Shown piece by piece: positions 4,859 through 58,456 of a DNA stretch of 64,000 nucleotides; positions within the stretch are counted from its first letter, which is position 1, and every line of letters begins with the position of its first letter. The notes below the pieces were generated by a model. The model saw only the letters and a list, made by a program, of their open reading frames with translations, searched no databases and had not been told where the DNA came from. The position numbers and the translations under genes are program-made. Source of the stretch: Candidatus Collierbacteria bacterium (lineage in GTDB: Bacteria > Patescibacteriota > Microgenomatia > UBA1400 > JACPES01); the NCBI GenBank assembly GCA_016183365.1, contig JACPES010000002.1, forward strand, positions 12,779 through 76,778, written 5' to 3'.

Positions 4859-4861
4859 TAT

Positions 4862-7416: not shown

Positions 7417-7501
7417 GCTGGGGTGGCGGAGCGGACAATCGCACCAGACTGTAAATCTGGCGCCTCACGGCTACCCAGGTTCGAATCCTGGCCCCAGCAC
7501 C
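7417..7501 (+). tRNA. tRNA-Tyr (anticodon GTA), type II with a long variable arm
   Basis: Acceptor GCTGGGG/CCCCAGC; anticodon stem CCAGA/TCTGG with loop CTGTAAA; T arm CCAGG-TTCGAAT-CCTGG; long variable arm. Confidence 0.85.
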
Positions 7502-8597: not shown

Positions 8598-8670
8598 AGC
8601 CGAGACCGGGAATCGAACCCGGGGCCTCATTCTTACCATGAATGCGCTCTGCCAACTGAGCTATCTCGGC
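8598..8670 (-). tRNA. tRNA-Thr (anticodon GGT)
   Basis: The reverse complement reads GCCGAGATAGCTCAGTTGGCAGAGCGCATTCATGGTAAGAATGAGGCCCCGGGTTCGATTCCCGGTCTCGGCT, giving a cloverleaf with anticodon loop ATGGTAA. Confidence 0.8.
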
Positions 8671-9378: not shown

Positions 9379-9857
9379 GAAACTTGTGATTTCTTGAAAA
9401 ACAACATTCATTAGCCAAACAATCAACAGAATTGAGAAGTTAATGATGACGCTTAGCGTCAAGGCTTCGGAAAGCGAAGAAATTATAATTAATAACGGTG
9501 AATCCGTGGTTAATGCCATATTAACGCCGGAAAAATAAAAACCGATTCCGGTTATAATTCCCAAAATTATAAGAGGTAGGGTGTGTTTGATATCTACCCA
9601 ACTTGGAAATAGAGAATTTGCAACCGTAAAAAATAAATATAGCTTGAATAAATCTGAAATCTGAAAATTCGAGTGTGGATGAAATCCACACGAGCGGTCC
9701 TAACCCGCTGTCTGCCCCCAAACCTGCCGACCAATCTTCCCAGCTCCGCCGTCATTTTCTGCCGTGTCAGGTACAAAAGTCTCAATCCCGCCAAGCTTAA
9801 TCCAATTTCTTTCACCATCAAAGAATACAGCAAAGTTAAGGAAAAGTTTTACCCACT

Positions 9858-9974
9858 TTATTCCAAGATAGCGAAAACCATGACCGTGAGACTATGGATG
9901 AAGCGATACAGATAGCCGCGGAGCGCACAGTGCGGAACAAAAAACCATGTGAATTGGCGCATGGTTTTTTTATA
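9858..9974. repeat. about 118-bp direct repeat, copy 1 (gene 3' end fragment plus terminator-like hairpin)
   Basis: Nearly identical to 11149-11266. It ends in aaaaaaccatgtgaattggcgcatggttttttt. Confidence 0.7.
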
Positions 9975-10229
9975 TTTTCCTACAGGTAAAGAGCAAAATC
10001 AACCACCTTGAACAGAATCGCAGTTTCCTCCATTTTCGCTAAACCATAATATCCGACTAGCAATGGTTCTTCGATTTTGCATACCCGTCTGGCTTTGCCT
10101 GAAGAGTCGACTTCAGTTCTAAACTGAAATAATCCTGTTCTCGTTTCAGCCATATAGTGAATATTTTATCCAGTATCCTGACAAAGTTTTTCTATCTTGA
10201 CGATTCGGTTTTCTATCAGTTATTATAAA

Positions 10230-10261
10230 TTCCAATTAATTAATCAATTAATTAATTGGAA
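10230..10261. promoter_or_regulatory. 32-nt near-perfect palindrome immediately upstream of the TrpR/YerC-like gene; putative operator
   Basis: ttccaattaattaatcaattaattaattggaa, 7 nt before the ATG. A second copy lies at 10748-10779 just after the stop, and a third variant lies inside the CDS at 52004-52034. Confidence 0.45.
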
Positions 10262-10267
10262 TAAATT

Positions 10268-10720
10268 ATGGCCAGGGTGTCTCTGCGTTGGCTTCAGCCG
10301 GAAGTAGAGGATAAAATTTACCAGCTTTTAGTTGAATGTGTGGCTTCGTGCCGTGATCAAAACGCCGCCGGCAATTTCATCGATGTTCTTTTGACTAAAA
10401 CTGAAAAATTGATGATTGGCAAGCGGATTGCAATCGCCCTGATGCTGATTAAAAACCATATTCCGTCGGAAATAGACGAAAAACTTAAAGTTTCGCAGAC
10501 GACTGTTTATACGGTTAAAACTTGGCTTGATGAGAAAGGTAAAGAATATCGGCAGTTGCTTAAAGAAATTGCCGATCGGGATGAAAGCCAACAAAGGAAA
10601 TATCAAGATTTGCGCCAAGAAGCCGCAGGCGGTTTCCTACCTCCGCGGCCGGGGACAAACTGGAAGGAATTCAAACGCAGCCAATGGCAAAAAGCCAAAT
10701 CCGCCAAAGTTCCATTTTAG
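10268..10720 (+). CDS. TrpR/YerC-YecD-like HTH DNA-binding protein
   Basis: FIDVLLTKTEKLMIGKRIAIALMLIKNHIPSEIDEKLKVSQTTVYTVKTW resembles the Trp-repressor-like YerC/YecD family. Confidence 0.5.
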   Translation: MARVSLRWLQPEVEDKIYQLLVECVASCRDQNAAGNFIDVLLTKTEKLMIGKRIAIALMLIKNHIPSEIDEKLKVSQTTVYTVKTWLDEKGKEYRQLLKEIADRDESQQRKYQDLRQEAAGGFLPPRPGTNWKEFKRSQWQKAKSAKVPF

Positions 10721-10747
10721 TTATTCTATTATTTTTTTCTTTATAAA

Positions 10748-10779
10748 TTCCAATTAATTAATCAATTAATTAATTGGAA
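10748..10779. promoter_or_regulatory. second copy of the 32-nt palindrome, downstream of the TrpR-like gene
   Basis: Sequence identical to 10230-10261. Confidence 0.45.
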
Positions 10780-10933
10780 TAAACGAGTGAGAGATTTTTT
10801 AAGATTTCTTAATAGAAACCTGTATAATTCTTAAAAGTGAGAGCAGAGTAAAAATAGGGCTGTAGTGAAATGGCCCGCCCGCAAAAGCTGTCGCTTTAGC
10901 GATTGCAGGCAGGCATCACGAGGTCTAAATTCT

Positions 10934-11007
10934 AGGGCTGTGATGAAATGGTATCATGGGGGTCTCCAAAACCCCTCTTTCAGGTTCGAATCCTGACAGC
11001 CCTGCCC
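10934..11007 (+). tRNA. tRNA-Trp (anticodon CCA)
   Basis: Acceptor AGGGCTG/CAGCCCT; D stem ATGA/TCAT; anticodon stem GGGGT/ACCCC with loop CTCCAAA; T arm TCAGG-TTCGAAT-CCTGA. Confidence 0.8.
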
Positions 11008-11103
11008 AGGTACCATACGATACCTGGTGGCGAGTGCAGAATTGTACCTGCTAAGGCACCATTCGGAGCCTGGCTTCGCCAGAAGCAAAAGCAGAATGTG
11101 CCG

Positions 11104-11146
11104 CCAATTGAAGGTCTGACCTTCAATATAGCTTCATATCAAGTAA
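11104..11146. repeat. REP-like palindromic element, copy 3
   Basis: ccaattgaaggtctgaccttcaatatagcttcatatcaagtaa. Confidence 0.7.
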
Positions 11147-11148
11147 TT

Positions 11149-11266
11149 TTATTCCAAGATAGCGAAAACCATGACCGTGAGGCCATGGATGAAGCGATAC
11201 AGATAGCCGCGGAGCGCACAGTGCGGAGCAAAAAACCATGTGAGTTGGCGCATGGTTTTTTTATAG
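11149..11266. repeat. about 118-bp direct repeat, copy 2
   Basis: See 9858-9974. Confidence 0.7.
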
Positions 11267-12328: not shown

Positions 12329-12472
12329 ATAGATATTTTGAAGATGAAAAATAGAGGTTCTTGATCTCGAATTCTTGACGATTTGATCACTTGATCAAAT
12401 ATTCAAGAAATCAAGAATATCAAGATCAAAAATTTCAAGAACATCTATCTTCAAGAAATCTATGATGAAAGA
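12329..12472. mobile_element. MITE-like repeat, family A, copy 3
   Basis: atagatattttgaagatg ... cttgatcacttgatcaaatattcaag ... catctatcttcaagaaatctat. Confidence 0.65.
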
Positions 12473-15530: not shown

Positions 15531-16484
15531 TTATGCCAGTTTTGTGTTAGGATGTCCGGCTAAGAATTGCTTCCAGGACACTGAATTTTTGCCTGGGAGC
15601 TGGACTTCGTCGATGACAAAAGAATGTTGAATGTTGAATGTTGCCCGCCCTCGGCCGAGCCGAGGCGAGGCCGGGGAATGTTGAATAAAGGAAAGATGGG
15701 TTTTTTTGATTGTAATTTCTGATTGTTTCCATTCGTCATTCTTCATTCGCCATTTAACATTGCTTTTTGCGCCGGGCCACGGCGTTACCGCCCTAATAAA
15801 TCTTTCTATCTCAACCGGTGATTTTTCCCAGTCAATCCGACCGGAGTCTTTGGTAAGTCTATGGGTGTAGGGAGTCGGAGATTTTAGCGGCTGCTTAACT
15901 TTATTTAATTGTCCGTTTTCTATCTTTTTTAGCGTTTCGACAATTAATTTACCACCGAGTATTCCTAGTTTTTTTGTGAGCGTTTCGCGGGTGTCAGATC
16001 TTATAATAGTTTTTGCTTGTCCCAACACCGGCCCCCGGTCTATTGCTTCAGTCATTTTCATAATGCTCACTCCGGTTTCTTTGTCACCTGCAGCTATTGC
16101 TTCAAAAACCGGAGATGCTCCGCGCCAGCGGGGTAAAAGCGAGGCGTGAACGTTAAGACAGCCGTATTTTGGCCACTTCAAAACTTCGGCCGGCAAAAAC
16201 GGCGGGCCGAAAGACGCCAAAACGATGGCGTCGGGTCGCGCAAGGCTGAAAGCGCAAGGCTGAAAGCTGAAGGCGGACGTAAGAGAATTGATGGATATGT
16301 CTTTAGGCTGTTTCGCTGGAATGATCTGAATTTTCTTTCGTCTTTCGTCCTTCATCCTTCGTCCTTTATCAATTGCTGCTTCACCCTTGGTGACAACAAT
16401 TGGTACTTCGTGCCCCGCCTTCAATAACGCCTCCAACACCGGCGGGGAAAACCACGGATCCGAGCCAAAGAAAATAATATTCAT
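15531..16484 (-). CDS. fmt: methionyl-tRNA formyltransferase with two in-frame insertions
   Basis: MNIIFFGSDPWFSPPVLEALLKAGHEVPIVVT ... LNVHASLLPRWRGASP ... IDRGPVL. Upstream codons back to 16571 lie in a repeat and were not used. Confidence 0.8.
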   Translation of the reverse strand: MNIIFFGSDPWFSPPVLEALLKAGHEVPIVVTKGEAAIDKGRRMKDERRKKIQIIPAKQPKDISINSLTSAFSFQPCAFSLARPDAIVLASFGPPFLPAEVLKWPKYGCLNVHASLLPRWRGASPVFEAIAAGDKETGVSIMKMTEAIDRGPVLGQAKTIIRSDTRETLTKKLGILGGKLIVETLKKIENGQLNKVKQPLKSPTPYTHRLTKDSGRIDWEKSPVEIERFIRAVTPWPGAKSNVKWRMKNDEWKQSEITIKKTHLSFIQHSPASPRLGRGRATFNIQHSFVIDEVQLPGKNSVSWKQFLAGHPNTKLA

Positions 16485-23671: not shown

Positions 23672-24961
23672 TTACTGCGGGCACTGGTAATTGGAAGGTT
23701 GACAGGTTGCGTTGCAGCATTTGCTGCTTTGGCATTGGGAGTTGGAACTACAACTTTGTCCATTGGGTTTTCTAGTTGGGGTGGGAGTGGGCGTGGGCAG
23801 CGGGTTTCCGCAACAGTAACCCCCGGAAGGGACACAAGTCCCCGAGGCGGTATATTTTCCCAACTGGTAGCAACTGACTCCGTAATAACACTGCCCTGTA
23901 CAAGTTGAAGCCGGAGTGGGAGTGGAAGTAGGTCTCGGTGTGGGAGTGGAAGTAGGACGAGGAGTAGGTGTGGGAGTAGGCTTTTTGGTCGGTGTGGGAG
24001 TAGGCTTTTTGGTGGGTGTGGGAGTGGAAGTAGGTCTCGGTGTGGGAGTAGGGGTGGGTGTGCCAATGGTAAATCTATTACTTGCTGAAACAGGGACTAA
24101 TTGACTATCTTGCGTGAAAGAATTGGAGGCATAAACACTCCAGTAATATTCGTGACCACGGATGAGATCGAACACATTACACTCGATTGCTTCTTCAGCG
24201 GGGGGGTTGGAGTAAAATCTTTGTTCGCATGTAGTTCTGGTTGTGCCGCTGGTTACGTCATACAACTGATAATAATGGCTAACAGGCCTATAACAATTGT
24301 GCCAGATAATTCGTGAATTAAGATGTACATCTTGCACGTCAGGGGGAAATTTGGTGTAGTTCGGCGGGTAATCAAGGATAATTTCCGGTTTCTGTCCTGG
24401 ACAGGCGTTAACACTGAAATTTCTGGTTTCAGAAAGTAATTCCAGGTAGGTTCTACTACTGGCTTTCACTTGCCACGAGTATTCGTTGCCCCAAGAAACC
24501 GGTACTGAACACTCAAATTCCCAAACTGATTTTCCAAACTCGTATGATTCACAGGATGGGATGGTAGTACCGGTGGTTAAGTTGGAAAAGACGATATAGT
24601 ATCTTGTCTCTTCCGAGCACTCCTTAATATCAAAAGATCCGGTAAGTTTAACCATACTTGTATCATCGGGAAAAGAGAAATTATCTGCCGGGGTAGAGAG
24701 AGTAATTTCAGGGAAGTCTCCAGTACAGAGCGGTATAGCTGGTATTGGCATAATTGATTTGGAGGCCAAGGAATAGATTCTTTGGGTATTTTGAAAAAGA
24801 AATATTCCTATTACCAGACCAATTGCCAGACCAACACCGAGTCGAAACAGGACAGTTAGATTTCGAGAATCGAGATTTTTTTTGAGTTTTTTGAGATTAT
24901 TTTGAAATTGCTTCATTAGCATCAGTATTATTAGTGTTTCACTTGGCGACATGAATGTCAA
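23672..24961 (-). CDS. cell-surface protein: signal anchor, beta-rich domains, Pro/Thr linker and a Cys-rich C-terminal module
   Basis: N-terminal TM helix ([22 protein letters not shown]), a [23 protein letters not shown]... linker, and a C-terminal cluster of about 18 Cys. Confidence 0.55.
23905..24062. repeat. tandem repeats that encode the Pro/Thr-rich linker
   Basis: Repeated ggtgtgggagtggaagtaggtctc units. Confidence 0.6.
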
Positions 24962-25860: not shown

Positions 25861-28032
25861 TCAATATTCGGAATTCAGTATTTTTATCGCTTCCGCGTAA
25901 TCCGGTTTCAATTCCAAGGCTTGGCGGTAAAGATTTTCGGCCTTGGATTTATCGTTCAATTCTCCATACATCCGGCCTAATAAATAGTATCCCCGGGGGT
26001 CGGTGGGGGATAAATCAACGGCTTTTTGAGCCAGTTTCAAGGCTTCATCAGTCAGATTTGGATCAATCTCCTTCATCAAAAATTCCATCTGGGTTTGAGT
26101 CCTGATAAAAGTCAAATTATATTTTGATTGGGCGGAAACGACTTTAAAATTTTTTACGGCTTCATTTTTTATCTCAACGGCGCGGGTTTCATTGTTGTTG
26201 GCCCAAGCCGAAATTGCGGCTACAGCCAATGATTCTGCCAGTTCGTTACGGAAAACCGGTTCATTGGGGGCTAAATTAACCGCTTGAGAGAGTGGTTCTA
26301 AGGCTTCCGGAATATATCCGGCTGAATAATATTGTCGGCCGAGATTGTATTTAAGATCAGCCTGAAACCGATTAAATATTCCGGAAATTACCCCAAAAGT
26401 AATAATGGCTATGATTGTTAGTAAAAAATACTTCCACCATAGCAATTTTATAAAGGAGTCTCCTTTAAGGATCTTCCCTTCTGTCGTGAAGACAACTGTC
26501 AAGCTCATAAATAAATATCTATAAGTCTCGGTGGTAACTGTGGAGAAACCGAAAAAGTTGACGGTTTCAACCCCGAGCAGGGCCGCCAGAATTGCGACAA
26601 GAACGTCATTGCGAGGAGTCCCGCCTTTGGCGGGACGACGTGGCAATCCCGATGGGATCGCCACGCTTCGCCCGTCAGACTGGCTTGCTCGCGATGACCT
26701 AACTATCCAAACTCCAAACCATCCCAACAACAGTAAATGTGTCCCTAATCCAAACAATCCCGTATTCGCCGCCAAATTCAGCCATTCATTATGAGCCTTG
26801 TTATATAAAAAATTCCATTCCGAGGTTTGGTTTGCTTCTTTGTGCCGGACTTGCCAGTAGGTCAGGCCGAAAGTCTCCGGTCCGGTTCCAAAAATTGGAT
26901 TCCTCTTGGCAATTTCCCAAGCTCCGTTCCAAACTATGCGGCGGATATCTCCGGATTCGGTGCCGCCTAGCTCCGACTTGCGGAGATTAATTGCTAATTG
27001 TTGATTGCTAATTACTGATTGTTCAGATTGATTTTTTACCAGCTGAATTGTTTTGAAAAACCAATCTCTGGCGGGATTATTAGTGATGAAAACCAAAATC
27101 AAGATGATTGAATGAATAAAAACAAAGGATTTGAGATTTTTGCTTTTTGCTTTTTGTTTATTGTTTATTGCGAACACGGTGAGCCAAAACACAACATCCA
27201 TTACTGCAAAACCAAGAAGTCCCGAGCGGGATTTTGTGAAGAGGAGGGCAGTAAAAAAAACAAAAAACAAAAAACAAAAAACAATCATATTTTTATTACC
27301 GTTCTTTGCTTTTTGCTCTTTGCTTTTTGTCATGAGCATCCATGTAAGCGGGATGATCATGACGAGGAACCCCGCTAGCCAGTTCGGCTGTCCCTGGGTA
27401 GAAAAAACTCGGGTTGCGACGTCCTGAATCCAGAAATCGCGGTCAATCCCGAAATGTTGAAAGATGGCGTAAAGGCTGACGATAGTGGCGGAAGAGAGAA
27501 TAGCAAATATCGGAACACTCGGAATACTCCGAAAACCAGAAAAATCAGAGAATCGGAGATTCAGAGAGCCCGAAGCTCCGGTCTTCTGATTATCAGATTT
27601 TCTGACCTTTCGGCTCTCCGAGTTTTCCGAGTTTTCCGAAATATTCGCCACAAATGCGTAATACAGCACCGTATAGCTAATCGTGCTCACAAGCCCTCCG
27701 TTAAATCTTCCGTACCAGCCAAACCACGAAATATGATGATCTATACTATATATAGTACTGACAACCTGTGACAGTAAAAATAGCAGAATGGGAATATCCA
27801 GCGGGGTCCAGCGCAAAATAATCCGGCCCGCCAAAATCATTCTTATTGTCCAGACGGCTATTATCAGTGTAGTCATTAAATACACAAACAGCATTTTGGG
27901 AAATTCAAACACTTCGCTGCTTGGAATCCAAAAGATTAAGGGCAAAAAGAAAAATAAAGTTATAAACAGGGCGCGAATGGTTAGTTGCAGGGTTCTATCA
28001 AGCCGGATAAACATTAAGTTTGATTTTAGCAA
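25861..28032 (-). CDS. O-antigen ligase/Wzy-like polytopic membrane protein with C-terminal TPR repeats
   Basis: Many TM helices, a Wzy_C-like region (NGAWEIAKRNPIFGTGPETFG) and C-terminal TPR repeats (GYYLLGRMYGELNDKSKAENLYRQALELKP). It carries several inserted repeat elements. Confidence 0.55.
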   Translation of the reverse strand: MLKSNLMFIRLDRTLQLTIRALFITLFFFLPLIFWIPSSEVFEFPKMLFVYLMTTLIIAVWTIRMILAGRIILRWTPLDIPILLFLLSQVVSTIYSIDHHISWFGWYGRFNGGLVSTISYTVLYYAFVANISENSENSESRKVRKSDNQKTGASGSLNLRFSDFSGFRSIPSVPIFAILSSATIVSLYAIFQHFGIDRDFWIQDVATRVFSTQGQPNWLAGFLVMIIPLTWMLMTKSKEQKAKNGNKNMIVFCFLFFVFFTALLFTKSRSGLLGFAVMDVVFWLTVFAINNKQKAKSKNLKSFVFIHSIILILVFITNNPARDWFFKTIQLVKNQSEQSVISNQQLAINLRKSELGGTESGDIRRIVWNGAWEIAKRNPIFGTGPETFGLTYWQVRHKEANQTSEWNFLYNKAHNEWLNLAANTGLFGLGTHLLLLGWFGVWIVRSSRASQSDGRSVAIPSGLPRRPAKGGTPRNDVLVAILAALLGVETVNFFGFSTVTTETYRYLFMSLTVVFTTEGKILKGDSFIKLLWWKYFLLTIIAIITFGVISGIFNRFQADLKYNLGRQYYSAGYIPEALEPLSQAVNLAPNEPVFRNELAESLAVAAISAWANNNETRAVEIKNEAVKNFKVVSAQSKYNLTFIRTQTQMEFLMKEIDPNLTDEALKLAQKAVDLSPTDPRGYYLLGRMYGELNDKSKAENLYRQALELKPDYAEAIKILNSEY

Positions 28033-30467: not shown

Positions 30468-30622
30468 TACATTTAGATTTCTTGAAGATGGATGTCCTCG
30501 AGGTTCTTGAATTTGACGCCTTGATTTTTTGATTACTTGATCAATTAGTCAAATTATCAAGAATTCAAGATCAAGAATATCCACTTTCCATCTTCAAGAT
30601 ATCTAGTTTGAATTCTATCAAA
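30468..30622. mobile_element. MITE-like repeat, family A, copy 4
   Basis: tagatttcttgaagatgg ... cttgattttttgattacttgatcaat ... ccatcttcaagatatctag. Confidence 0.65.
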
Positions 30623-32262: not shown

Positions 32263-32686
32263 TATTTTTTTGTTGGCGCTGACTTTTATAATCTCCGGGG
32301 CAGAACCATTTTTGGGATCATTTAGTCTGGCTGCCATTTGGGCGGCGGCGCTGGGAGTAAAAAAACAGGATATTCTCGGGGCATTGTTGACATTTATATT
32401 AGGTTTGGTTCGGGATATACTATTGATTAATAGATTGGGACAATCGTCAATTATTTTATTGGCAGTTTGGACTTTAGCCGGAATAATATCTTCCAAATTG
32501 TCAAAAAATTTATTTTCAGTTGCAGTCTCGGCCTTTGGTGGATATTTAATCTTAAGTTTAGTAGAAATAGGGACGATCAATATTTGGGGGACGTTAATTA
32601 CGGTTATAATATCAATATTAATTGTTGAAATTTGGACGCTGAAAGATTCCCGCGAATCGGGAATTAAAGTCAGATTGTCTTCATGA
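32222..32686 (+). CDS. mreD: rod-shape-determining protein MreD (putative)
   Basis: Small polytopic membrane protein between mreC and mrdA. Confidence 0.5.
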   Translation: MPALTLFFSYQMNNIFLLALTFIISGAEPFLGSFSLAAIWAAALGVKKQDILGALLTFILGLVRDILLINRLGQSSIILLAVWTLAGIISSKLSKNLFSVAVSAFGGYLILSLVEIGTINIWGTLITVIISILIVEIWTLKDSRESGIKVRLSS

Positions 32687-34446
32687 AGTTTGGACCGTTG
32701 GAATTATCAATCGCTGATAGAAAACAAAATTTTTTGCCGCTGGGAATAATGGTCGTAATTATGATGTCCGCAGTGGGTATAATTTTGGCCAGACTGACGG
32801 AATTGACGGTTTTTCGCGGAGGAGAATTAAGGCGCCGGGCGGACGAAAACAGGATTTTGGTTAGGGTGGTCCCGGCTCCCCGGGGAATAATTTTTGATAA
32901 AAATGGAAAGGCATTGACTCGGAATACTCCGGATGGCAGAGCCTATCCATTTGACCGGAATTTTTCTCACTTGACCGGATATATCGGCGAAGCTTCAGAG
33001 GAAGAAATTAAAAGCGATTCATCTCTAAACCCTGGTAATATTTTAGGAAAAACCGGATTGGAAAAGCAATACGATAAGGAGTTGCGCGGAATCGATGGAG
33101 CTGAATTGATTGAAGTGGATGCAAATGGCAATTTACTTGAGGTTTTAGAGGATCAATTACCACAGGCGGGAAAAGATATTTATACTTATTTAGATGTGGA
33201 TTTACAAGTTGCCATGACTGAAAATTTAGGGGGAAGAAAAGGGGCGGCTGTGGCAATTGATCCGGTGGATGGCTCAGTTTTGGGATTGGTTTCCAGTCCG
33301 TCGTATGACCCGAATATATTTCAGAAAACTCTGAATACAATCATTCCGGAAAACTCAGAAAACTCGGATGGCCGGAAAGTCGGAATGTCAGAAAATCAGA
33401 AAGTCGGACCCTCTGGTTCTCCGAGTTCTCCGAGTGTTCTGGACTTATTGAATGACACCGTCAATATGCCATTATTTAACCGCGCCATTTCCGGCGAATA
33501 TCCGCCGGGATCTATTTTTAAATTGGTGACGGCGGCAGCGGGATTGTCAGAAAATAAAATTAACCGCCAAACTTTAGTTAGGGATACCGGTGAGATCAGA
33601 GTCGGAGACTTTAGATTCGGCAATTGGTATTTTGATCAGTATGGAAAAACCGAAGGCGAAATCGGAGTGGTCAGGGCTTTAACCAGAAGCAACGATATTT
33701 TTTTCTATAAAGTCGGGGAATGGTTGGGGCCGGATCTATTAGCAGGATGGGCTAAAAAAATGAAACTGGGTAAAAAAACAGGTATTGATTTATCCGGAGA
33801 AGCCGATGGTTTGGTTCCTGACCCTAAATGGAGGGAAAAGGCTACAGGTGAAAGATGGTTCTTGGGAAATACTTATCATATGGCCATCGGTCAGGGTGAT
33901 GTTCAATTGACTCCATTGCAGGCGGCGGTGATGACCAGTACGGTGATTACCGGCAAACGCTGTACGCCGCGGATTAAACAATTAACAATCAGCAATCAGC
34001 AATCAGCAATTTCTTGTGAAGATACAGGAGTTTCTAAAAGTAACCGCAATTTAATTCTTGAAGGAATGGTGGGATCCTGCAGTCCGGGCGGGGTGACCTT
34101 TCCGTTTTTCCCTTGGAATCAATCCATTGAAGGTCAGACCTTCAATGAAGCCATACATCAATCAAACGGTATGAGCGGTTATCCGGCTGTGGCGTGTAAA
34201 ACTGGCACGGCCCAGCATGGTGGAAAACAGACTAAACCGCACGCGTGGATTGTAGTCGCTGCCCCAATTATTGAAAGCCAACCATCAGTAAAATCAGCAA
34301 TTAGCAATTCTTCTTATCAACTCGATTTAGACTCTCCCAAACGAATAATTTTAGTCGTTCTTGTCGAAGATGCCGGCGAGGGCTCCTACGAAGCCGCTCC
34401 TGTGGCCAAAAAGATTTTGGAAAAATGGTTTGAAACCAATAAATAA
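32683..34446 (+). CDS. mrdA: penicillin-binding protein 2 (peptidoglycan transpeptidase) with three in-frame repeat insertions
   Basis: AAVAIDPVDGSVLGLVSSPSYDPN ... SIFKLVTAAAGL (SxxK) ... KTGTAQ. Insertions at 33347-33440, 33978-34012 and 34126-34164. Confidence 0.85.
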   Translation: MKFGPLELSIADRKQNFLPLGIMVVIMMSAVGIILARLTELTVFRGGELRRRADENRILVRVVPAPRGIIFDKNGKALTRNTPDGRAYPFDRNFSHLTGYIGEASEEEIKSDSSLNPGNILGKTGLEKQYDKELRGIDGAELIEVDANGNLLEVLEDQLPQAGKDIYTYLDVDLQVAMTENLGGRKGAAVAIDPVDGSVLGLVSSPSYDPNIFQKTLNTIIPENSENSDGRKVGMSENQKVGPSGSPSSPSVLDLLNDTVNMPLFNRAISGEYPPGSIFKLVTAAAGLSENKINRQTLVRDTGEIRVGDFRFGNWYFDQYGKTEGEIGVVRALTRSNDIFFYKVGEWLGPDLLAGWAKKMKLGKKTGIDLSGEADGLVPDPKWREKATGERWFLGNTYHMAIGQGDVQLTPLQAAVMTSTVITGKRCTPRIKQLTISNQQSAISCEDTGVSKSNRNLILEGMVGSCSPGGVTFPFFPWNQSIEGQTFNEAIHQSNGMSGYPAVACKTGTAQHGGKQTKPHAWIVVAAPIIESQPSVKSAISNSSYQLDLDSPKRIILVVLVEDAGEGSYEAAPVAKKILEKWFETNK

Positions 34447-35720: not shown

Positions 35721-36917
35721 ATGACTATCGATGATCTGAAGAAAAAAATCAAGAAGTTAGGGTTAGAGATTGACGGGGATAACGGCCGGGTGCTGATTGA
35801 GTGGAAGAAGGTTCCGTTTGTCGAGGCCGATCGGCCTTATTGGGCGGGGTTATCCTCAATAGACGGAGTCGGCCCGAATACTTTGCCGCTTCTGGTTTCG
35901 TGTTTTGGATCGGCTGAAAAGGTGTTGTCGGCGGATAAGCAATTATTGCAACAGGCGGGGTTGCCCGAGAGGGTTGCCGGAAGTATTATCGGATTTTCCG
36001 GCCGCAGAAATATTAGCCTTTGGTTTGATAAAGCTTTGCGCCCCGAACCCGATATTAATTTATCTTTTATGGTGCCTAAAGATGAGGAATTTCCGGAGAG
36101 GTTAATGACGATGACCGGAGCCCCAAGCCATTTGTGGGTTTGGGGTGATAAAAAAATACTAAATCAGAAGCGGATAGTGGCGGTGGTGGGCACCAGAAAA
36201 ATTACCCCATATGGCCGGAGGGTGACTGAAGATTTAGCCGAGGCGCTGGCGATCCGTGAAATGACGGTGGTTTCCGGCTTAATGTACGGAGTGGATGAAA
36301 CAGCTCAAAGAGCGGCGCTGAAAAATAGAGGGAAAGTAATCGGGGTTTGGGCCGGAGGGTTAACCCGGAAATCTTTTGGCAGCCGGTCCCGGTTGGCTTA
36401 CGAAATAGTTTCAAATAAAGGCGCGGTAGTCTCGGAATTTTCATTCGATAGATATCCGTTTAAAGGCACATTTCCTGCTCGGAATCGGATCGTTTCCGGG
36501 TTGGCCGCCGGAGTGGTGATTACTGAAGCGGCGGTAAAATCCGGCAGTTTAATTACCGCAGATTGCGCTTTGGATCAGGGAAAGCCGGTGGGAGCGGTTC
36601 CCGGGCCGATAACCAGCCGATTGTCGGAAGGCACCAACGAATTATTGAAAAACGGAGCCGCGCCTATCACCAATGTTGTCGATATTCTTGAGATGTGCGG
36701 TTTTACCTCTAAGGATCTTGGCGCGCCGATCAGTTATCTGTCCAAAAATGAAACAGAAAAACGGATTCTCGAGTTTCTGTCAGATCAAAATATGACGATT
36801 GATGATTTAGTCAGGATGTCATCAACGCCTATTTCTGAAGTTTCCGAAACTTTAACCTCATTGGAGTTGTCCGGAGCGGTCGGACAAGTAGGAGAAGAGT
36901 GGAGGAAAATATTCTAG
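35721..36917 (+). CDS. dprA: DNA-processing protein DprA (Smf)
   Basis: VVGTRKITPYGRRVTEDLAEALA ... VVSGLMYGVDETAQRAAL Rossmann-like DprA core. Confidence 0.85.
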   Translation: MTIDDLKKKIKKLGLEIDGDNGRVLIEWKKVPFVEADRPYWAGLSSIDGVGPNTLPLLVSCFGSAEKVLSADKQLLQQAGLPERVAGSIIGFSGRRNISLWFDKALRPEPDINLSFMVPKDEEFPERLMTMTGAPSHLWVWGDKKILNQKRIVAVVGTRKITPYGRRVTEDLAEALAIREMTVVSGLMYGVDETAQRAALKNRGKVIGVWAGGLTRKSFGSRSRLAYEIVSNKGAVVSEFSFDRYPFKGTFPARNRIVSGLAAGVVITEAAVKSGSLITADCALDQGKPVGAVPGPITSRLSEGTNELLKNGAAPITNVVDILEMCGFTSKDLGAPISYLSKNETEKRILEFLSDQNMTIDDLVRMSSTPISEVSETLTSLELSGAVGQVGEEWRKIF

Positions 36918-37050
36918 AGATCTTGAAGATGGAAAATGGACATTCTCGAGATTGAATTTTTGATGTTTTGAAATTTTGATCAAGATATCTAAGGCATCAA
37001 GATATCAAATTCAAGGGTATCAAGGATGTCTATCCTCAAGAAATCTATTA
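36915..37050. mobile_element. MITE-like repeat, family A, copy 5
   Basis: tagagatcttgaagatgg ... ttgatcaagatatc ... ctatcctcaagaaatctat. Confidence 0.65.
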
Positions 37051-39235: not shown

Positions 39236-39961
39236 ATGTTTAAGCGTTTATTTGGAGGACACCGGAACAAAGTTTACAAAACTAACGGATTTGTGAAGGT
39301 CATATGGAAAGATGGTTTTAGAAGACAAAACCAAATCCGCGAGGGGGTTAGCTTAGAAAATTTTGTGGCGACTCATATAGATATTAAAGCCCGGATGTTA
39401 GTTGACAAGTCTAAGCCGGTTGAAGAAGAAGACGGGGGATTGGTAACCTATTTTCATTACGCCGAAGGCGAGATCCGCTATCCATGGAATTTGGATGAAA
39501 TTGCTTCGGCGGCGAAATTGCTTACTAGGTTTCATCAGCATTTAAAGGCCTGGCCTTCGCCGCGGGGGCCAGGCCTTATCAGACAACTCCATCTGGATTT
39601 TGCCCGCGGCAACGTACTATTTCAGCCCGGATCCTCGAACGCTATCGGCGTCATCGACTTCGAAACCACAGCCATTGGTCCGGTTGAACAAGATCTCGGC
39701 CGCACCCTAAGCTTTATTTTAGTTGATTCGCCCATTAATTTAAATAGGGAAGATCCTTTAAGGAGTATCCTTCAAGGATCTTCCTTTTTTGAGAGATGGA
39801 ACACCTTATTGACAAATTACTCTCTGACATTTAGAAAAGACAAGGTGATAAACTGGACCTTGCGGTACTTGACCGACGAAGACTACGGGAGTTTAAACTA
39901 CATAAGAGATAAAGCAATTTCATGGCTGCATGACAGTGTTGTTAACAATTTAACAATTTAG
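39236..39961 (+). CDS. phosphotransferase (APH/choline-kinase-like) family protein
   Basis: HLDFARGNVLF ... GVIDFETTAIGPVEQDL is the Brenner kinase motif. Contains the ggagtatccttcaaggatc repeat in frame. Confidence 0.45.
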   Translation: MFKRLFGGHRNKVYKTNGFVKVIWKDGFRRQNQIREGVSLENFVATHIDIKARMLVDKSKPVEEEDGGLVTYFHYAEGEIRYPWNLDEIASAAKLLTRFHQHLKAWPSPRGPGLIRQLHLDFARGNVLFQPGSSNAIGVIDFETTAIGPVEQDLGRTLSFILVDSPINLNREDPLRSILQGSSFFERWNTLLTNYSLTFRKDKVINWTLRYLTDEDYGSLNYIRDKAISWLHDSVVNNLTI

Positions 39962-47599: not shown

Positions 47600-48496
47600 A
47601 TGATTATCGATGGGAAAAAATTAGCGGCCGAAAGAGAAAAGAAACTAGCGGGAGAAGTTAGCTTGCTTACGAAAAAAATCGGCCGTCGGCCAAAACTTCT
47701 GGCGGTGGAATTAGCCGATGATGAGGGGAGCAGGTTGTATCTTAAATTAAAGCGAAAAGCGGCAGAAAGGTTGGGAATAGAATTTGAAGTTATAAAAAGG
47801 CCAGGCCTTTCCGGGAAAGGCCTGGCCTTTTTGACTGGTTTTGATATAGATGGGGTGTTTGTTCAGCATCCCAGGGGTTATGACAAACAAAAATGGCAGG
47901 AATTGGTCGATCAAATCCCGCCGGAAAAAGATGTTGATTGTTTGACCAGTGAAAATCTTCAATTGATTAAAGACGGCAAGCCAAGATTTTTGCCGGCTAC
48001 CGTTAAGGCTGTTGGCTACGTCATTCTGAGCGTAGTGAAGGATCCCGTCGGGCCTAATCCTAAATGGGATTCTTCAGTCGTTTCACTCCTTCAGAATGAC
48101 GGGTTATTAAGGCATTTCCTTCTCAACAAGCACGTCGTCATTCTCGGTCGCAGTCCGATTCTTGGTTTACCCCTCTTCTGGTGGTTCAATAGTTTTGGCG
48201 GGAAAGTGACTCTGTTGCATTCGCAAACAAAAAACAAAAAACAAAAAACAAAAAACTCCGATATTCTTATTTCTTCCGTCGGCAAACCCGGAATTATCAT
48301 CGGCAAAATGGTGAAAGAGGGAGCGATTGTCGTTGATTGCGGTTCGCCTTCGGGCGACGTAGCCTTCGGCGAAGTCGCCCCCAAAGCTTCTGCCATCACC
48401 CCGGTCCCCGGCGGCGTCGGCCCCTTAACCGTGGTAAGTTTGATGGAAAATGTGGTAAAATCGGCAAAAGACACATATGCCAAAAAAAGACGATAA
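47600..48496 (+). CDS. folD: bifunctional methylene-THF dehydrogenase/cyclohydrolase FolD with three in-frame repeat insertions
   Basis: MIIDGKKLAAEREKKLAGEV ... LLAVELADDEGSRLYLKLKRKAAERLGIEFEV ... C-terminal GGVGPLTVVSLMENV. Confidence 0.8.
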   Translation: MIIDGKKLAAEREKKLAGEVSLLTKKIGRRPKLLAVELADDEGSRLYLKLKRKAAERLGIEFEVIKRPGLSGKGLAFLTGFDIDGVFVQHPRGYDKQKWQELVDQIPPEKDVDCLTSENLQLIKDGKPRFLPATVKAVGYVILSVVKDPVGPNPKWDSSVVSLLQNDGLLRHFLLNKHVVILGRSPILGLPLFWWFNSFGGKVTLLHSQTKNKKQKTKNSDILISSVGKPGIIIGKMVKEGAIVVDCGSPSGDVAFGEVAPKASAITPVPGGVGPLTVVSLMENVVKSAKDTYAKKRR

Positions 48497-51376: not shown

Positions 51377-52732
51377 CTATTGTAAAAAGGCCAGGCCTTT
51401 ATGATACTTTATGATATAGTTTGTTCTTTTTGAGTACTTGTTAATCAATTCAGCCAAAATTTTTGCTTTATTCTGATCGATATTTATATGTGTCGGCAGA
51501 TTTAAAATATGCAGGCTTAAATTTTCGGCGTTGCGACAAGAGCCAAGTCGGTATTTGACTCGAGAATTATCAACCCACTTGGGAGATACAGGCGCGTCAT
51601 ACCAGTGATCCATAAGATAAAAACCGTGTTTGGTCAATTTTTTTTCCAATTCATCGCGGTTGCCTACCCAAACCGGGTAGCGTAAATTAGAACCATTTTT
51701 AATATCAAGAGCAATTATCAACTTGAGCCTTTTATAAATAACATGATCATAAATTAAGGCAATATTCCGGCGGTGGACAATAATTTTCTCTAACTTGCTT
51801 AGTTGGTTTAGGATCAATGCGGCCAGAGCGTTTGGCAGGGAAGTGAGTTTGTCAGGCGCGTCTAGAGAAGAGGGGAGAAGGTCTAATTCTTTGCCGACAA
51901 AATGGATTATTTTTCCCAATCCAATATTGTAAGTTTGCCGTATCGTCGAAGTCAGCAGGGGATAGAAAAGACTTTTTGTAATATTAATTTTACTCCAATT
52001 AATTAATTGATTAATTGATTGGAATGATTGGCGATGAGATTTGAGTGATGAAATTAATGCCCCTCCGGAGACGCCGTCGATAACTTTGTCTTGGGAGAAG
52101 GAAAGAATGATGGCGTCGGGACAAATGGGATGATTAAGAGTGTTAAGAGTGTTAGGATGGTGAAGTAGATTATTGTCATCATAACCATCGTAATCATCTA
52201 ACCATCTAGCTTCAGCGCCGAGCGCGTGGGCGAGGTCTTGGATGACAATAATCTTGTGATTCCGGCACCAGTTTACGATTTGATCGTTTTCCCGGTTGAG
52301 ATATCCCAAGGTATGTTGGAGAATAAGGGCTTTAGTTTTGGGAGAAACTGATTTTTTTATTTGCGCCAAGGATGGATTGAGATTTTTGGGACCGACATCA
52401 ACGTAAATTGGAATAGCCCCTAAATCCAAAATCGGTTGAACCACGGCCACACAGGTAAAAGCTTGGACAATGACTTCGTCACCCTGTCCGATTTTAAGAA
52501 TTTTCAGGGCTTCATAAATTGCCTGCCTGCCTTTTAGAAACAACCGTATGCTGACATCATTGTTTCGCCCCGCCTCGGCGGGACGAAACTTCACAAACTT
52601 CGCAAGCAGTGTTTGCTCAAGCAAACTTGTTTCTTTACCCTTTAGCCATTTCCACGGTTGGAAAAGAAGTTTGATGGCTAAAGTTAGATCCGCGGACGAG
52701 TAGTTTGATCCCAGAGAGTTGGTGATAATCAC
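51377..52732 (-). CDS. DegT/DnrJ/EryC1/StrS-family PLP-dependent aminotransferase with in-frame palindromic insertions
   Basis: GDEVIVQAFTCVAVVQPILDLGAIPIYVDV resembles the DegT family (fold type I). Insertions near 52004-52034 and 52540-52620. Confidence 0.7.
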   Translation of the reverse strand: MIITNSLGSNYSSADLTLAIKLLFQPWKWLKGKETSLLEQTLLAKFVKFRPAEAGRNNDVSIRLFLKGRQAIYEALKILKIGQGDEVIVQAFTCVAVVQPILDLGAIPIYVDVGPKNLNPSLAQIKKSVSPKTKALILQHTLGYLNRENDQIVNWCRNHKIIVIQDLAHALGAEARWLDDYDGYDDNNLLHHPNTLNTLNHPICPDAIILSFSQDKVIDGVSGGALISSLKSHRQSFQSINQLINWSKINITKSLFYPLLTSTIRQTYNIGLGKIIHFVGKELDLLPSSLDAPDKLTSLPNALAALILNQLSKLEKIIVHRRNIALIYDHVIYKRLKLIIALDIKNGSNLRYPVWVGNRDELEKKLTKHGFYLMDHWYDAPVSPKWVDNSRVKYRLGSCRNAENLSLHILNLPTHINIDQNKAKILAELINKYSKRTNYIIKYHKGLAFLQ

Positions 52733-53622: not shown

Positions 53623-55062
53623 TTATTTAAATAATTGAAGTTTTTGAAATGCTAGGCGTTTTTTATCCCAGAATTTTCCGCGGCGGCAGAGATTAGAGAT
53701 ATCCGATTTGTTTTCTAGCAGCGTCTCGACCACGATCTCTAAAAAAATCGTGTTTTGAGATCCCTTGACTAAGATTATTTCTCCGCCGGAGATAAATTCG
53801 TGCTTCTCAATTATGGAGATTTGTCTGGCAGAGCCGGATCTCGCTCCGCGAGACGATCCTGCCAATAAAAACTTGGCCGCTTCTCCGGCAGTCAAAAACC
53901 ATTCGACCGGCAGTTTCGACTGTTTGATTATCGGTAGAGCGTATTGTTTCATCAATGGTCCGACGAGGACTATTTTATCCGCGGTTTTCACCGCTACCTC
54001 AGCTATTTTTTCGTGTTCTATTTTAGCCTGCGAACCCAGTTCGCGCATGTCCCCCAAAACCGCGATTTTGGTTTTATTTCCTCCAATATTTTGAAGCATT
54101 TTCAGACTGCCGATTACCGTTTCCCGCGAGGCGTTATAAGAAGAATCAATGATGGCGGTATTTTTAATTCCCGGAAAAATCCAACCGCGCCCCGATGGTA
54201 GTTTGAATCCTGCCGAGATTTTTTCGGCTATGGCTTGAGGATCTTGACCCAAACAAATTCCGGTGGCGAAAGCCGCCGATAAAGTGAATCCGTAAAATTC
54301 CGGCAAAATCATATTTTTTAATGAAATTTGATATTCCCGTTGTTTAAATGAAAGTAATACCTCTGTTTGAGAAAGCGAAGGAATAACGTTTAAAATTTTA
54401 ACATCGGCTGCCGGCGATTTTCCAAAGGTTAAAGTTCTTGCTCCAGCTGATTTCGGTTTCAGTGAATTTATTTCCGGTTGATCGGCGTTTAAAATAGCCC
54501 ATTGCAAATTTTGATTTTCGGTTATAAGTTTTCCCTTCTCTGCGGCGATGGACTCTATTAAGGTCAGACATTTCCGTACGACCAGGTCTGACCTTTCAAA
54601 CTGTTCTGTATGTACCGGCAAAACGTTTAAAATTACAGCTATATCCGGTTTTAAGATTGTCAGCAAATAGCCCATGTTTTTGGGCGAAGTCGGTTCGTCG
54701 ATGCCCATTTCGACGAGATAACAATCGAAAGAATTGCTAATTGCTGATTGCTGATTGTTAATTGTTTTAATAGCTTGAATTGGCGCCAATGCGAGGATGC
54801 GTAGCCAGTCAAAAATAGGATGAACCGACTCGCCGAAATGAAGGCCGAGAATGTCGGCCGGAATGCCGGATTCGGAATTGGCTTTTTCGGCAACTTTAAG
54901 ATTTTTAAATTTTAGTTTTAATACCGGCGCGATTGCGTCTATGGCGCTGGATTTTCCGGCCGAACCGGTGATTCCGACAATAAAAGGATTGCTTTTCTTA
55001 AGCGCAAACAAGGCCCAAAATCTAAGCCACCATAAAATCGGCCAACGAAAAATGCGTTTCAT
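53623..55062 (-). CDS. murF: Mur ligase family protein (MurF-like UDP-MurNAc-peptide D-Ala-D-Ala ligase)
   Basis: IVGITGSAGKSS P-loop ... NSESGIPADILGL. Carries an in-frame NQQSAIS repeat insertion. Confidence 0.65.
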   Translation of the reverse strand: MKRIFRWPILWWLRFWALFALKKSNPFIVGITGSAGKSSAIDAIAPVLKLKFKNLKVAEKANSESGIPADILGLHFGESVHPIFDWLRILALAPIQAIKTINNQQSAISNSFDCYLVEMGIDEPTSPKNMGYLLTILKPDIAVILNVLPVHTEQFERSDLVVRKCLTLIESIAAEKGKLITENQNLQWAILNADQPEINSLKPKSAGARTLTFGKSPAADVKILNVIPSLSQTEVLLSFKQREYQISLKNMILPEFYGFTLSAAFATGICLGQDPQAIAEKISAGFKLPSGRGWIFPGIKNTAIIDSSYNASRETVIGSLKMLQNIGGNKTKIAVLGDMRELGSQAKIEHEKIAEVAVKTADKIVLVGPLMKQYALPIIKQSKLPVEWFLTAGEAAKFLLAGSSRGARSGSARQISIIEKHEFISGGEIILVKGSQNTIFLEIVVETLLENKSDISNLCRRGKFWDKKRLAFQKLQLFK

Positions 55063-55152: not shown

Positions 55153-56274
55153 GTGTTGACTGTTTTGTTTTTTTTAATTCTGCTTTCGGTTCTGGTTTTA
55201 GTCCATGAACTGGGGCATTTTATCGCCGCCAAGAAATTGGGAGTAGTGGCGGAAGAGTTTGGTTTGGGTTTGCCGCCCAAAGTCAGGCGGCTTTTTGTCT
55301 GGCAGGGGACGGAATTTACCCTCAACTGGCTGCCGCTGGGTGGGTTTGTGAAGATGAGAGGGGAAGATCGGGAAATAAAAGACAATGAGCAAAAAACAAT
55401 GAGCAAAGAACAAAAAGCAAAAAACAAAGAGCAAGGATTTTTCTTTGCGCAACCGCCATGGAAGCGGGCGGTGATTTTGGTGGCCGGGGTATTTATGAAC
55501 TTGGTTTTGGGAGTGGCGGCATTTACCTCGGTTTATACCGTCTTGGGAATTCCGGAAGAAAGAGACGTGGTGGTTATCGACGGAGTGGCGCCAAATAGCC
55601 CGGCGGAGCGGGCACAACTAAATCAAAACGATGTTGTGAACGAGTTCAAAGTTCAAAGTTCAAAGTTCAAAGTTAACGACACCAAGCAATTCATAGAATT
55701 AATTAATCAGCATCGAGGGGAGGAAGTCACGCTCATTATTAAGCGTGGACAAGAGGAAAAAGAAATTGTTGTTACTCCGCGACTTGAATCCGAAACTCCA
55801 GAAGGCGAGGGAGCGCTGGGGGTGGCGATTTCCAATATCCAGTTTATCCACTATCCCCGGTGGCAGATGCCGTTTAGGGCGTCCGTGACTGGGTTTAAGG
55901 AAGCTTTGGCATGGGGACGGAATATTATCGGGGGTTTGGGGAAAATGGTTTTCGATCTGGCGACTCACGGCAAAGTCCCGAATGATTTGGCCGGGCCGGT
56001 GGGAATCGCCAAAATTACCGGCGAAGTGGCCAAGAGAGGTTGGATTCCGCTTTTCCAATTGGCCGGAATTTTATCAATCAATTTAGCGGTGGTTAATATC
56101 CTGCCGATTCCGGCTCTGGACGGCGGCAGGTTGCTGTTTTTAGGGATCGAAAAACTGAGAGGAAAGCCGATGGATCCGAAGAAAGAACGTTTGGCCCATC
56201 TGATCGGCTATACATTGCTAATCTCTCTTTTAATTTTGATTACCATCAAAGATTTAATCGGCGGAGTCGGATAA
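55153..56274 (+). CDS. rseP: RIP metalloprotease RseP (site-2 protease with PDZ domain)
   Basis: HELGHFIAAKKLGV ... PDZ region ... NLAVVNILPIPALDGGRLLF. Confidence 0.8.
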   Translation: MLTVLFFLILLSVLVLVHELGHFIAAKKLGVVAEEFGLGLPPKVRRLFVWQGTEFTLNWLPLGGFVKMRGEDREIKDNEQKTMSKEQKAKNKEQGFFFAQPPWKRAVILVAGVFMNLVLGVAAFTSVYTVLGIPEERDVVVIDGVAPNSPAERAQLNQNDVVNEFKVQSSKFKVNDTKQFIELINQHRGEEVTLIIKRGQEEKEIVVTPRLESETPEGEGALGVAISNIQFIHYPRWQMPFRASVTGFKEALAWGRNIIGGLGKMVFDLATHGKVPNDLAGPVGIAKITGEVAKRGWIPLFQLAGILSINLAVVNILPIPALDGGRLLFLGIEKLRGKPMDPKKERLAHLIGYTLLISLLILITIKDLIGGVG

Positions 56275-58253: not shown

Positions 58254-58456
58254 TTTTTTACTGCCAACATATCAATTCTTCTCTCGAATGGCGAATTTAT
58301 GGTGTTGACAAAAAATCCTGCTTCTCGTAAAGAACTCTGAAGCTCATATGTTGTCGGGAAGTACCAATGGCGGCCATCCATGAACGCATATCCGCGAGCG
58401 AAATCTAATTTATATTTCAAAAAATGTTTGAACAGGTTTTTGTGGCTCAAGTCCAA
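58250..58456 (-). CDS. small hypothetical protein
   Basis: 68-aa ORF. Confidence 0.2.
   Translation of the reverse strand: MDLSHKNLFKHFLKYKLDFARGYAFMDGRHWYFPTTYELQSSLREAGFFVNTINSPFERRIDMLAVKK

Follow-up and report, generated by a model that had tools for sequence, protein, structure and literature searches.

The subject of this analysis is a short tandem repeat of the heptanucleotide CAATCAG that lies in three genes of a 64,000-nucleotide stretch (the window) of a Candidatus Collierbacteria genome (assembly GCA_016183365.1, contig JACPES010000002.1). Its four copies are part of a larger, genome-wide set of period-7 tandem repeats of this member of the candidate phyla radiation (CPR; Microgenomates), and they are probably heptanucleotide simple-sequence repeats (SSRs) that were made by slippage and filtered by selection. 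The hydrophilic, low-complexity segments that they encode sit in loops of otherwise conserved proteins, and these loops are hypervariable among orthologues and modeled with low confidence. Counts of arrays in the window refer to these 64 kb of the source genome. The four sites are as follows.

Array A, 33976-34011, plus strand: five CAATNNN heptamer units with 3.6 perfect units of CAATCAG, sequence AAACAATTAACAATCAGCAATCAGCAATCAGCAATT, in the PBP2 gene mrdA.
Array B, 54732-54767, minus strand: CAATTAA CAATCAG CAATCAG CAATTAG CAATTCT, in the gene for a MurF-like Mur ligase (open reading frame [ORF] 53623-55062).
Array C, 26988-27021, minus strand: degenerate, CAATCAG TAATTAG CAATCAA CAATTAG CAATTAA, in the gene for a Wzy_C/TPR protein (ORF 25861-28032).
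Array D, 34291-34308, plus strand: a weak copy, AAATCAGCAATTAGCAAT, in the C-terminal loop of PBP2/mrdA.

Variants of the unit CAATCAG, among them CAATTAG and CAATTAA, differ from it by C-to-T and A/G changes. Tandem Repeats Finder (TRF) reported head-to-tail copies of a single unit within the 1- to 11-nt range that defines an SSR: 3.6 copies of CAATCAG at 33986-34010 (100% matches, array A), 4.7 copies at 54732-54764 (88% matches, array B), and 4.9 copies at 26988-27021 (74% matches, array C). The arrays also exceed what composition predicts. The 18-mer CAATCAGCAATCAGCAAT, allowing up to 3 mismatches, had 10 matches in the window, compared with 0.04 expected from dinucleotide-preserving shuffles. 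A looser pattern, CAATNNNCAATNNNCAAT, likewise had 10 matches versus 0.02 expected, and every CAATCAG-type match fell at A, B, or C. Arrays A and B are identical at 35 of 36 nt.

All four copies are translated. Array A reads KQLTISNQQSAIS within ORF 32683-34446, with residues 432-443 being KQLTISNQQSAI; array B provides residues 99-111 of the Mur ligase, KTINNQQSAISNS; array C reads QSVISNQQLAINL, with residues 338-349 being QSVISNQQLAIN; and array D reads KSAISNS, with residues 537-542 being KSAISN. A preliminary description of this DNA had reported a short translated element in mrdA, a murF-like ligase gene, and a Wzy-like gene, with a weaker copy near 34290-34310. The three sites are present where it had placed them, the weaker copy was located at 34291-34308 on the plus strand, and the match counts greatly exceed chance expectation. 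The PBP2 protein is identical to protein HYU89_00425 of a Candidatus Collierbacteria metagenome-assembled genome (MAG; NCBI contig of 175,921 bp), and the same protein is encoded on two independent Logan assemblies. Since it recurs on these assemblies and on the MAG contig, the repeats are not assembly artifacts. The gene names of the preliminary description also agree with domain matches and with the mreB/mreC neighborhood, as listed here.

Host gene 1, 32683-34446, plus strand: PBP2/mrdA, with PBP_dimer and Transpeptidase domains, downstream of mreB, mreC, and a putative mreD.
Host gene 2, 53623-55062, minus strand: Mur ligase, with Mur_ligase_M and C domains.
Host gene 3, 25861-28032, minus strand: Wzy_C (O-antigen ligase-like) protein, with a Wzy_C domain and C-terminal TPR repeats.

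Several sources name the orthologues of the Mur ligase MurF or UDP-MurNAc-tripeptide--D-Ala-D-Ala ligase. The Wzy_C/TPR gene holds at least three further heptamer arrays, at 27137-27171, 27255-27284, and 27303-27329.

The resemblance of the encoded peptides follows from the length of the DNA unit. The three frames of (CAATCAG)n read QSAISNQ, NQQSAIS, and ISNQQSA, which are one cyclic heptapeptide. Because 7 and 3 are coprime, each frame of this strand yields the same cyclic peptide, and the frame is restored after 21 nt. The complement, (CTGATTG)n, carries TGA in all three frames, as do the complements of the variant units; therefore, only the sense orientation can persist inside a gene. With peptide and strand both forced, neither the peptide likeness nor the sense orientation is evidence of in-frame bias. 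The same 36 nt are in fact read one base apart in two of the genes, as AAA CAA TTA ACA ATC AGC in array A (codon phase 0) and as ACA ATT AAC AAT CAG in array B (codon phase 1). The proposal that the motif recurs in frame thus fails, as the copies have no common frame. The "in-frame motif" seemingly shared by these unrelated genes is a by-product of the period of 7 in the DNA. The same point has been made for TAACTGA repeats, in which one orientation has stops in all frames and the other encodes LSVISYQ (MacGregor 2015, PMC4679880).

To place the CAATCAG arrays among the other repeats of the window, TRF rows were compared with third-order Markov simulations of the window.

Period 7: 25 rows observed, simulated mean of 1.15.
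Period 8: 17 rows observed, simulated mean of 2.25.
Period 14: 9 rows observed, simulated mean of 0.15.
Period 21: 3 rows observed, simulated mean of 0.

Period-7 repeats were thus approximately 20-fold overrepresented, as judged by the Markov simulations. Their units are diverse, including CAGTATT, ACCGAAT, GCAAAAA, GTTTTTT, AAACAAA, AGTTCAA, GGACGAA, and others. In-frame arrays were found in the following genes.

Ribosomal protein L10, 2157-2246, minus strand: (CAGTATT)n and (ACCGAAT)n, encoding SVFSIQNSE and IPNTEYRIPN.
Methionyl-tRNA formyltransferase (Fmt), 15622-16366, minus strand: three period-7 arrays and one period-14 array.
FolD, 48225-48256, plus strand: 4.6 copies of AAACAAA, encoding TKNKKQKTKN.
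RseP-like M50 protease, 55373-55674, plus strand: an A-rich period-7/21 array and 4.6 copies of AGTTCAA.

The tail of ribosomal protein S2 and a ThyX-like gene also hold in-frame heptamer arrays, and the topoisomerase I gene holds an octamer array. By rough ORF-based gene calls, which give a coding fraction of 86%, 13 of 20 period-7 arrays lay clearly within genes and 7 of 20 were intergenic or ran across gene ends. The corresponding densities were 0.24 arrays per kb of coding DNA versus 0.77 per kb of intergenic and boundary DNA, an approximately 3-fold depletion in coding DNA that would be expected if selection removes most intragenic arrays.

The preliminary description had also confined the motif to peptidoglycan and envelope genes. 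Within the window, the only hosts of CAATCAG-type arrays are indeed three envelope-related genes. This category accounts for about 23% of coding length, so that the nominal probability of three such hosts is 0.23^3 = 0.013 for a category that was chosen post hoc and for a sample of three, and arrays of other units are present in L10, S2, Fmt, FolD, RseP, and the ThyX-like gene. Taking coding period-7, -14, and -21 arrays together, 8 of 20 were in envelope genes against 23% expected (P = 0.07). Envelope enrichment of heptamer arrays was not convincing on these numbers, and the confinement is a small-sample impression.

Comparison with orthologues showed where in the proteins the arrays are placed. 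In an alignment of 26 PBP2 orthologues, array A fills the hypervariable stretch that separates a conserved C-x-P from a conserved C, and array D occupies a second variable stretch near the C terminus. At these two stretches, the orthologues carry other 7-periodic low-complexity peptides, namely, ENREQETRN, SVFRIQNSELN, SDLKFKNSDF, KDEGRGTKDEG, and CKVQSAKCK. The DNA of the first loop consists of five perfect CAACAAG units in relative L125, of ATTTCAG-type units in L390, and of AACAGAG-type units in L389; the second loop contains (GAATTCA), (ACGAAGG), and (GTGCAAA) arrays, and hairpin inserts also occur there. The perfect five-unit array in L125 suggests recent expansion. Array A is missing from the nearest PBP2 orthologue (76% identity).

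The other two proteins showed similar turnover. Array B is kept at the same site in the ligase orthologue of L123 (66% identity), where it encodes ISNQQSAINNS and differs by A/G transitions. Other Mur ligase orthologues have unrelated short peptides at this site, and the L124 ligase has a 14-residue insertion derived from a CAAnAAG array at another site. Array C lies in a variable stretch directly before a conserved GGTESG.IR motif. It is missing in a homologue with 60% identity (P0293), and the syntenic relative L388 has a TCCGTAC-like heptamer array in its place.

AlphaFold2 models, built on the orthologue alignments, were obtained for PBP2 (mean predicted local distance difference test score [pLDDT] of 76.8) and the ligase (mean pLDDT of 85.6). 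In the PBP2 model, residues 433-444 (array A) and 533-543 (array D) were predicted as coil, with pLDDT below 50 at residues 437-440 and 536-539, respectively. In the ligase model, residues 105-108 (array B), where a helix ends and coil follows, had pLDDT below 50. The preliminary description had proposed to check whether host proteins tolerate the motif in predicted loops; in PBP2 and the ligase, the inserts do fall in predicted flexible loops modeled with low confidence.

Heptamer arrays are not particular to this genome. The syntenic 21.7-kb locus of another Collierbacteria MAG (L388) gave 26 period-7 rows, and a Chisholmbacteria locus gave 16 in 21.7 kb; two other Microgenomates loci gave few. 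The exact CAATCAG 18-mer was found in at least 120 loci of very different phyla. Among the matches listed were Acidobacteriota, Verrucomicrobiota, Bacteroidota, Planctomycetota, Xanthomonadales, Liberibacter, and a Magasanikbacteria MAG. A protein search with (NQQSAIS)6 returned only "hypothetical" ORFs of 40 to 74 residues without domains (Xylella, Moorena, Moraxella, and others), which are probably gene calls over noncoding arrays; a protein family bearing (NQQSAIS)n was rejected on this basis. The long CAATCAG arrays elsewhere lie mostly in such tiny ORFs, and the short ones are read in differing frames. This is, in outline, the spread over intergenic DNA and all frames that the preliminary description had named as the sign that in-frame bias is absent. 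We also considered whether CAATCAG is a special cross-phylum signal. In viral contigs, CAATCAG was found at 23 loci, three permuted units were found at 4, 20, and 95 loci, and TAACTGA was found at 120 or more, and the idea was rejected in view of the permuted heptamers. An inverted CTGATTG partner array was present within 200 nt of 41 of the 120 listed CAATCAG arrays of other phyla, compared with 31 of 560 control windows. The partner was upstream twice as often as downstream.

We propose that the arrays would arise and turn over through replication slippage, possibly aided by ectopic conversion between similar arrays, and that selection would purge those intragenic arrays that are off the stop-free strand, break the frame, or fall outside tolerant loops. 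The different or perfect arrays that orthologues carry at the same PBP2 loop are, as far as sequence comparison goes, consistent with slippage. No evidence was seen for a function of the repeat itself.

Several observations weigh against this reading. Copy-number variants of the host proteins were not found in the database, in which each 90% cluster has a single member. The arrays are short, with 3.6 perfect units at most, and present slippage rates should therefore be low. Array A matches array B at 35 of 36 nt, yet array B matches its own orthologue in L123 at only 32 of 36, and A, B, and D have a common 3' end, GCAATT(T)CTT. The closeness of A and B and the common 3' end hint at copying or conversion and not at independent origins. 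The units AATACTG and AATTCAG recur in different genes of different relatives (the window, L388, L393, and L391), and pairs of units within one mismatch of each other were about three times as frequent between the window and L388 as among random heptamers (6.3% versus 1.9%). Pure in situ slippage does not explain units that recur across relatives. Ectopic conversion or array-to-array copying could account for the A/B closeness, the common ends, and the unit recurrence. A CTGA/TCAG core was present in 17 to 19% of units in the window and L388 (and in 2 of 5 in L393) versus 5% expected but in 0 of 16 Chisholmbacteria units, and it was left as a weak trend.

The foremost alternative is that the sites are copies of a small dispersed element of about 36 to 45 nt, spread by copy-paste, template switching, or ectopic gene conversion between arrays. 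We regard this as unlikely, although it draws on some of the same observations. The match of A and B includes their imperfect end units, AAACAAT and TAACAAT, and if a 1-nt indel is allowed, the two also correspond over ATTAAA(A)CAATT on their left side and CAATT(T)CTT on their right. In the window, 36 nt are common to two of the copies and 21 nt to a third, B and D being identical over 21 nt at their 3' ends (AATCAGCAATTAGCAATTCTT). That A is nearer to B than B is to its L123 orthologue also fits copying, and with A absent from the PBP2 orthologue of 76% identity and B present in the ligase orthologue of 66% identity, A could be the later copy. Furthermore, genuine small dispersed elements, inserted in frame, exist in this genome. 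Against such an element, the arrays have neither terminal inverted repeats nor a palindromic fold, their RNAs folding no better than shuffles (z = 0.32, -1.33, and -1.68 for three arrays), and no target-site duplication was seen. In the JGI metagenome contigs, the exact 28-mer shared by A and B had a single match, and this lay at an unrelated locus. TAA and TAG unit variants are common in arrays of unrelated phyla, so that shared variants can be convergent, and the same positions flip between A and G in the L123 orthologue.

Two related candidates were set aside. The lone 28-mer match (L387) lies beside an IS200-like ORF, to which neither Y1 transposase gene of the window is related; the match was taken as a coincidence, and a defined mobile element was rejected. 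RNA structure was rejected because of the shuffle comparison given above. An Rfam scan of the window returned four tRNAs only and no other RNA family.

Far less probable is that the arrays are contingency loci, in which envelope genes would be turned on and off by a shift of frame as single 7-nt units are gained or lost. As seven is not a multiple of three, slippage by a single unit would disrupt the frame, and phase variation classically targets envelope genes (PMC4679880). However, contingency loci are long, perfect, variable tracts in dispensable surface genes, and the tracts found here are short and imperfect. Their hosts are core and probably essential genes (PBP2 and the Mur ligase, with L10 and S2 for other arrays), the frame is intact through the arrays in all orthologues of PBP2, the ligase, and Wzy, and the single-member 90% clusters put no length variants on record.

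Similarly improbable is a signal at the nucleic acid level, in which the arrays would be tandem binding sites for a DNA- or RNA-binding protein that reads heptads, comparable to the proposal made for TAACTGA. Tandem heptads do serve as protein-binding sites in other systems, according to the account in PMC4679880, and the excess of inverted partners among the listed arrays suggests structured elements in some genomes. The window arrays, however, are intragenic and solitary, and their RNA is unstructured. They have no consistent placement relative to start codons, and no single reader protein fits units that differ between arrays and between orthologues.

The reading of NQQSAIS as a selected peptide module, for instance, a binding or localization motif of envelope proteins, is the least probable of all and largely refuted: the four copies of the window do all belong to envelope-related proteins, and one orthologue has retained the ligase copy, but the peptide is automatic from the DNA unit, the 7-periodic peptides in orthologous loops are unrelated to it, disordered coil is predicted for the segments, and the (NQQSAIS)6 search found only the domain-less ORFs described above. 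It also counts against such a module that the Mur ligase is cytoplasmic, whereas an extracytoplasmic location is most likely for the loops of PBP2 and Wzy.

Among known systems, the arrays are closest to the long heptanucleotide SSRs of prokaryotes (Mrazek, Guo and Shah 2007), as these are summarized in PMC4679880 and PMC4692102, with which they share head-to-tail 7-nt copies, a dominant period of 7, a scattered phylogeny, and a proposed slippage origin. Compared with the SSRs in those summaries, the arrays found here are shorter (3 to 5 units), and an unusually high proportion, about two-thirds, is intragenic, essential genes included. The same two sources relate that earlier surveys found mainly multiple-of-three units in coding DNA and an overrepresentation of heptamers in intergenic DNA. 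TAACTGA repeats of Beggiatoaceae, Cyanobacteria, and Bacteroidetes (MacGregor 2015, PMC4679880) likewise have one stop-bearing orientation and one that encodes seven residues. The coding orientation (LSVISYQ) is occasionally found inside ORFs, including MurG, mostly at tolerant positions (PMC4679880). However, those repeats have a single dominant unit and are mostly intergenic, a few nucleotides upstream of start codons, whereas the window has many units, no link to start codons, and all four CAATCAG copies deep in ORFs.

The short tandemly repeated repetitive (STRR) heptamers of heterocystous cyanobacteria resemble our arrays as dispersed tandem heptamers with several unit families per genome, but they have other units, occur in another phylum, and were described mainly from noncoding DNA. 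The units of STRR1 to STRR3 are CCCCAGT, TTGGTCA, and CAACAGT, which differ from CAATCAG, and the source here is Candidatus Collierbacteria. Rickettsia palindromic elements (RPEs) are reportedly in-frame selfish DNA, palindromic mobile elements of 100 to 150 nt with defined ends. As in our case, a short repeated DNA is translated in loops of housekeeping proteins; the CAATCAG arrays, however, are tandem and nonpalindromic and have neither the defined ends nor the palindromic fold of RPE-like elements, miniature inverted-repeat transposable elements, or small dispersed repeats. Haemophilus and Neisseria contingency loci share with the arrays a repeat unit that is not a multiple of three and a location in envelope genes; the short imperfect tracts, essential hosts, conserved frame, and lack of observed length polymorphism set the arrays apart. 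The outcome resembles that of the amino acid tandem repeats of Borgs (PMC9879509), in which rapidly evolving nucleotide repeats create new disordered, low-complexity segments in existing proteins, often in envelope proteins and at similar places in homologues. All Borg ORF repeats are perfect and have a unit length divisible by three (PMC9879509), whereas the arrays described here are short and decayed, with a unit of 7 nt, and the frame is kept only via their total length.

Other repeats of the window include element-like inserts in the same genes, which are more remarkable than the CAATCAG motif. Those at 34114-34169, 33330-33440, and 26444-26480 resemble RPE and REP elements far more than the CAATCAG arrays do. 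The first belongs to a hairpin family with the core TTGAAGGTCTGACCTTCAA, with copies at the following positions.

4807-4862: hairpin copy.
5630-5685: hairpin copy.
11095-11150: hairpin copy.
34114-34169: hairpin copy, in frame in mrdA.

Hairpins of this family, with copies 93% identical, bracket an IS200-like Y1 transposase ORF (4862-5560, minus strand; PF01797, E = 4.5e-4, under the curated cutoff) on both sides, an arrangement that looks like REP/RAYT. The mrdA copy encodes NQSIEGQTFNEAIHQSNG, with pLDDT below 50 at residues 483-497 and an RNA fold z of -2.6; orthologues P0002-P0006 have the insert, and P0007-P0010 lack it. A second small repeat, AAGGAGTCTCCTTCAAGGATCTTCC, was found at 592-619, 1366-1424, 26444-26480, and 39737-39787. 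Copies of it flank the other Y1 transposase gene (633-1355, minus strand; PF01797, E = 8e-10), and further copies stand in frame within the Wzy protein (TEGKILKGDSFI) and an APH-like gene. The genes mrdA (33330-33440) and Wzy (27520-27665, minus strand) have in common an element of about 100 nt, the two copies being 80% identical. It consists of an array of CGGAAAACT/CGGAAAGT units followed by an inverted array, GTTCTCCGA, of 8- to 9-mers, and its fold is a long hairpin (-38.9 kcal/mol, z = -3.6). Both proteins include its translation, ENSENSDGRKVGMSENQKVGPSGSPSSPS and ENSENSESRKVRKSDNQKTGASGS..., and PBP2 residues 220-248 have a pLDDT below 50.

About five intergenic elements of about 130 nt consist of direct and inverted CTTGATNN octamer arrays with 69 to 88% identity between copies (4422-4559, 6710-6843, 12330-12463, 30474-30609, and 36914-37048), and they adjoin nusG, mreB, dprA/topA, and other genes. 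Inverted pairs of heptamer or octamer arrays, which are potential hairpins, are frequent (3635-3692/3730-3760, 2157-2187/2216-2246, and 41672-41701/41707-41739); some of these need G-U pairing on one strand only. In the C-terminal loop of the PBP2 orthologue of L388 (11530-11620 of that locus), a GC-rich hairpin, CCTGCCCGCC...GGCGGGAG, interrupts a (GAATTCA)n array at its middle, with hairpin and array both in frame. This nesting recalls the small dispersed repeats of Nostoc that are nested in heptamer repeats.

The remaining features of the window are given one per line.

10223-10265 and 10741-10783: two identical 43-nt AT-rich palindromes (CCAATTAATTAATCAATTAATTAATTGG core) that bracket a Trp-repressor-like gene (10268-10720).
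51986-52028: a 74% copy of this palindrome, inside a DegT-like aminotransferase gene.
23892-24082: a G-rich period 6/24 repeat, GGAGTGGGAGTGGAAGTAGG..., in a 429-amino-acid ORF (23672-24961, minus strand) with no Pfam match; its coding strand would encode a Pro/Thr/Ser-rich repeat.
58410-60861, minus strand: an Eco57I-like N6 methyltransferase gene, then two overlapping ORFs matching positions 35-108 and 239-351 of the AccI endonuclease profile, which from the sequence may be a frameshifted or split endonuclease gene.
9857-9974 and 11148-11265: a direct repeat of 118 nt whose copies, with 97% identity, are spaced 1.3 kb apart in a region rich in tRNAs.
7152-7222, 7417-7499, 8598-8670, and 10934-11004: tRNAs.

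In many bacteria, the commonest long SSRs are heptamers, for which an origin by polymerase slippage has been proposed (Mrazek 2007, as summarized in PMC4679880 and PMC4692102); by the account of these two sources, they have received little detailed follow-up. Against this background, the arrays of the window are mildly unusual in the number of them that lie in essential genes of a small CPR genome and in the different arrays found in the same loops between lineages. It is conceivable, but in our estimation quite unlikely, that Collierbacteria and related Microgenomates have an unusually active, lineage-wide heptamer turnover that rewrites the same few surface loops of PBP2, Wzy, the Mur ligase, L10, and Fmt. 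Unit families would then be spread by copying or conversion, alongside in-frame REP/RAYT-like hairpins, and the result would be a standing means of loop diversification for a reduced genome of episymbiotic lifestyle, and not passive junk.

The practical value of this result is that a false lead is removed, in that a peptide motif common to unrelated proteins can stem from a 7-nt DNA repeat. Such repeat-encoded segments should be masked in homology and motif searches. Heptamers, which are normally reported from intergenic DNA, here occupy loops in which essential proteins of a small CPR genome tolerate them. If their turnover is fast, they would be good material for studying why 7-nt units dominate bacterial repeats and how disordered protein segments originate.

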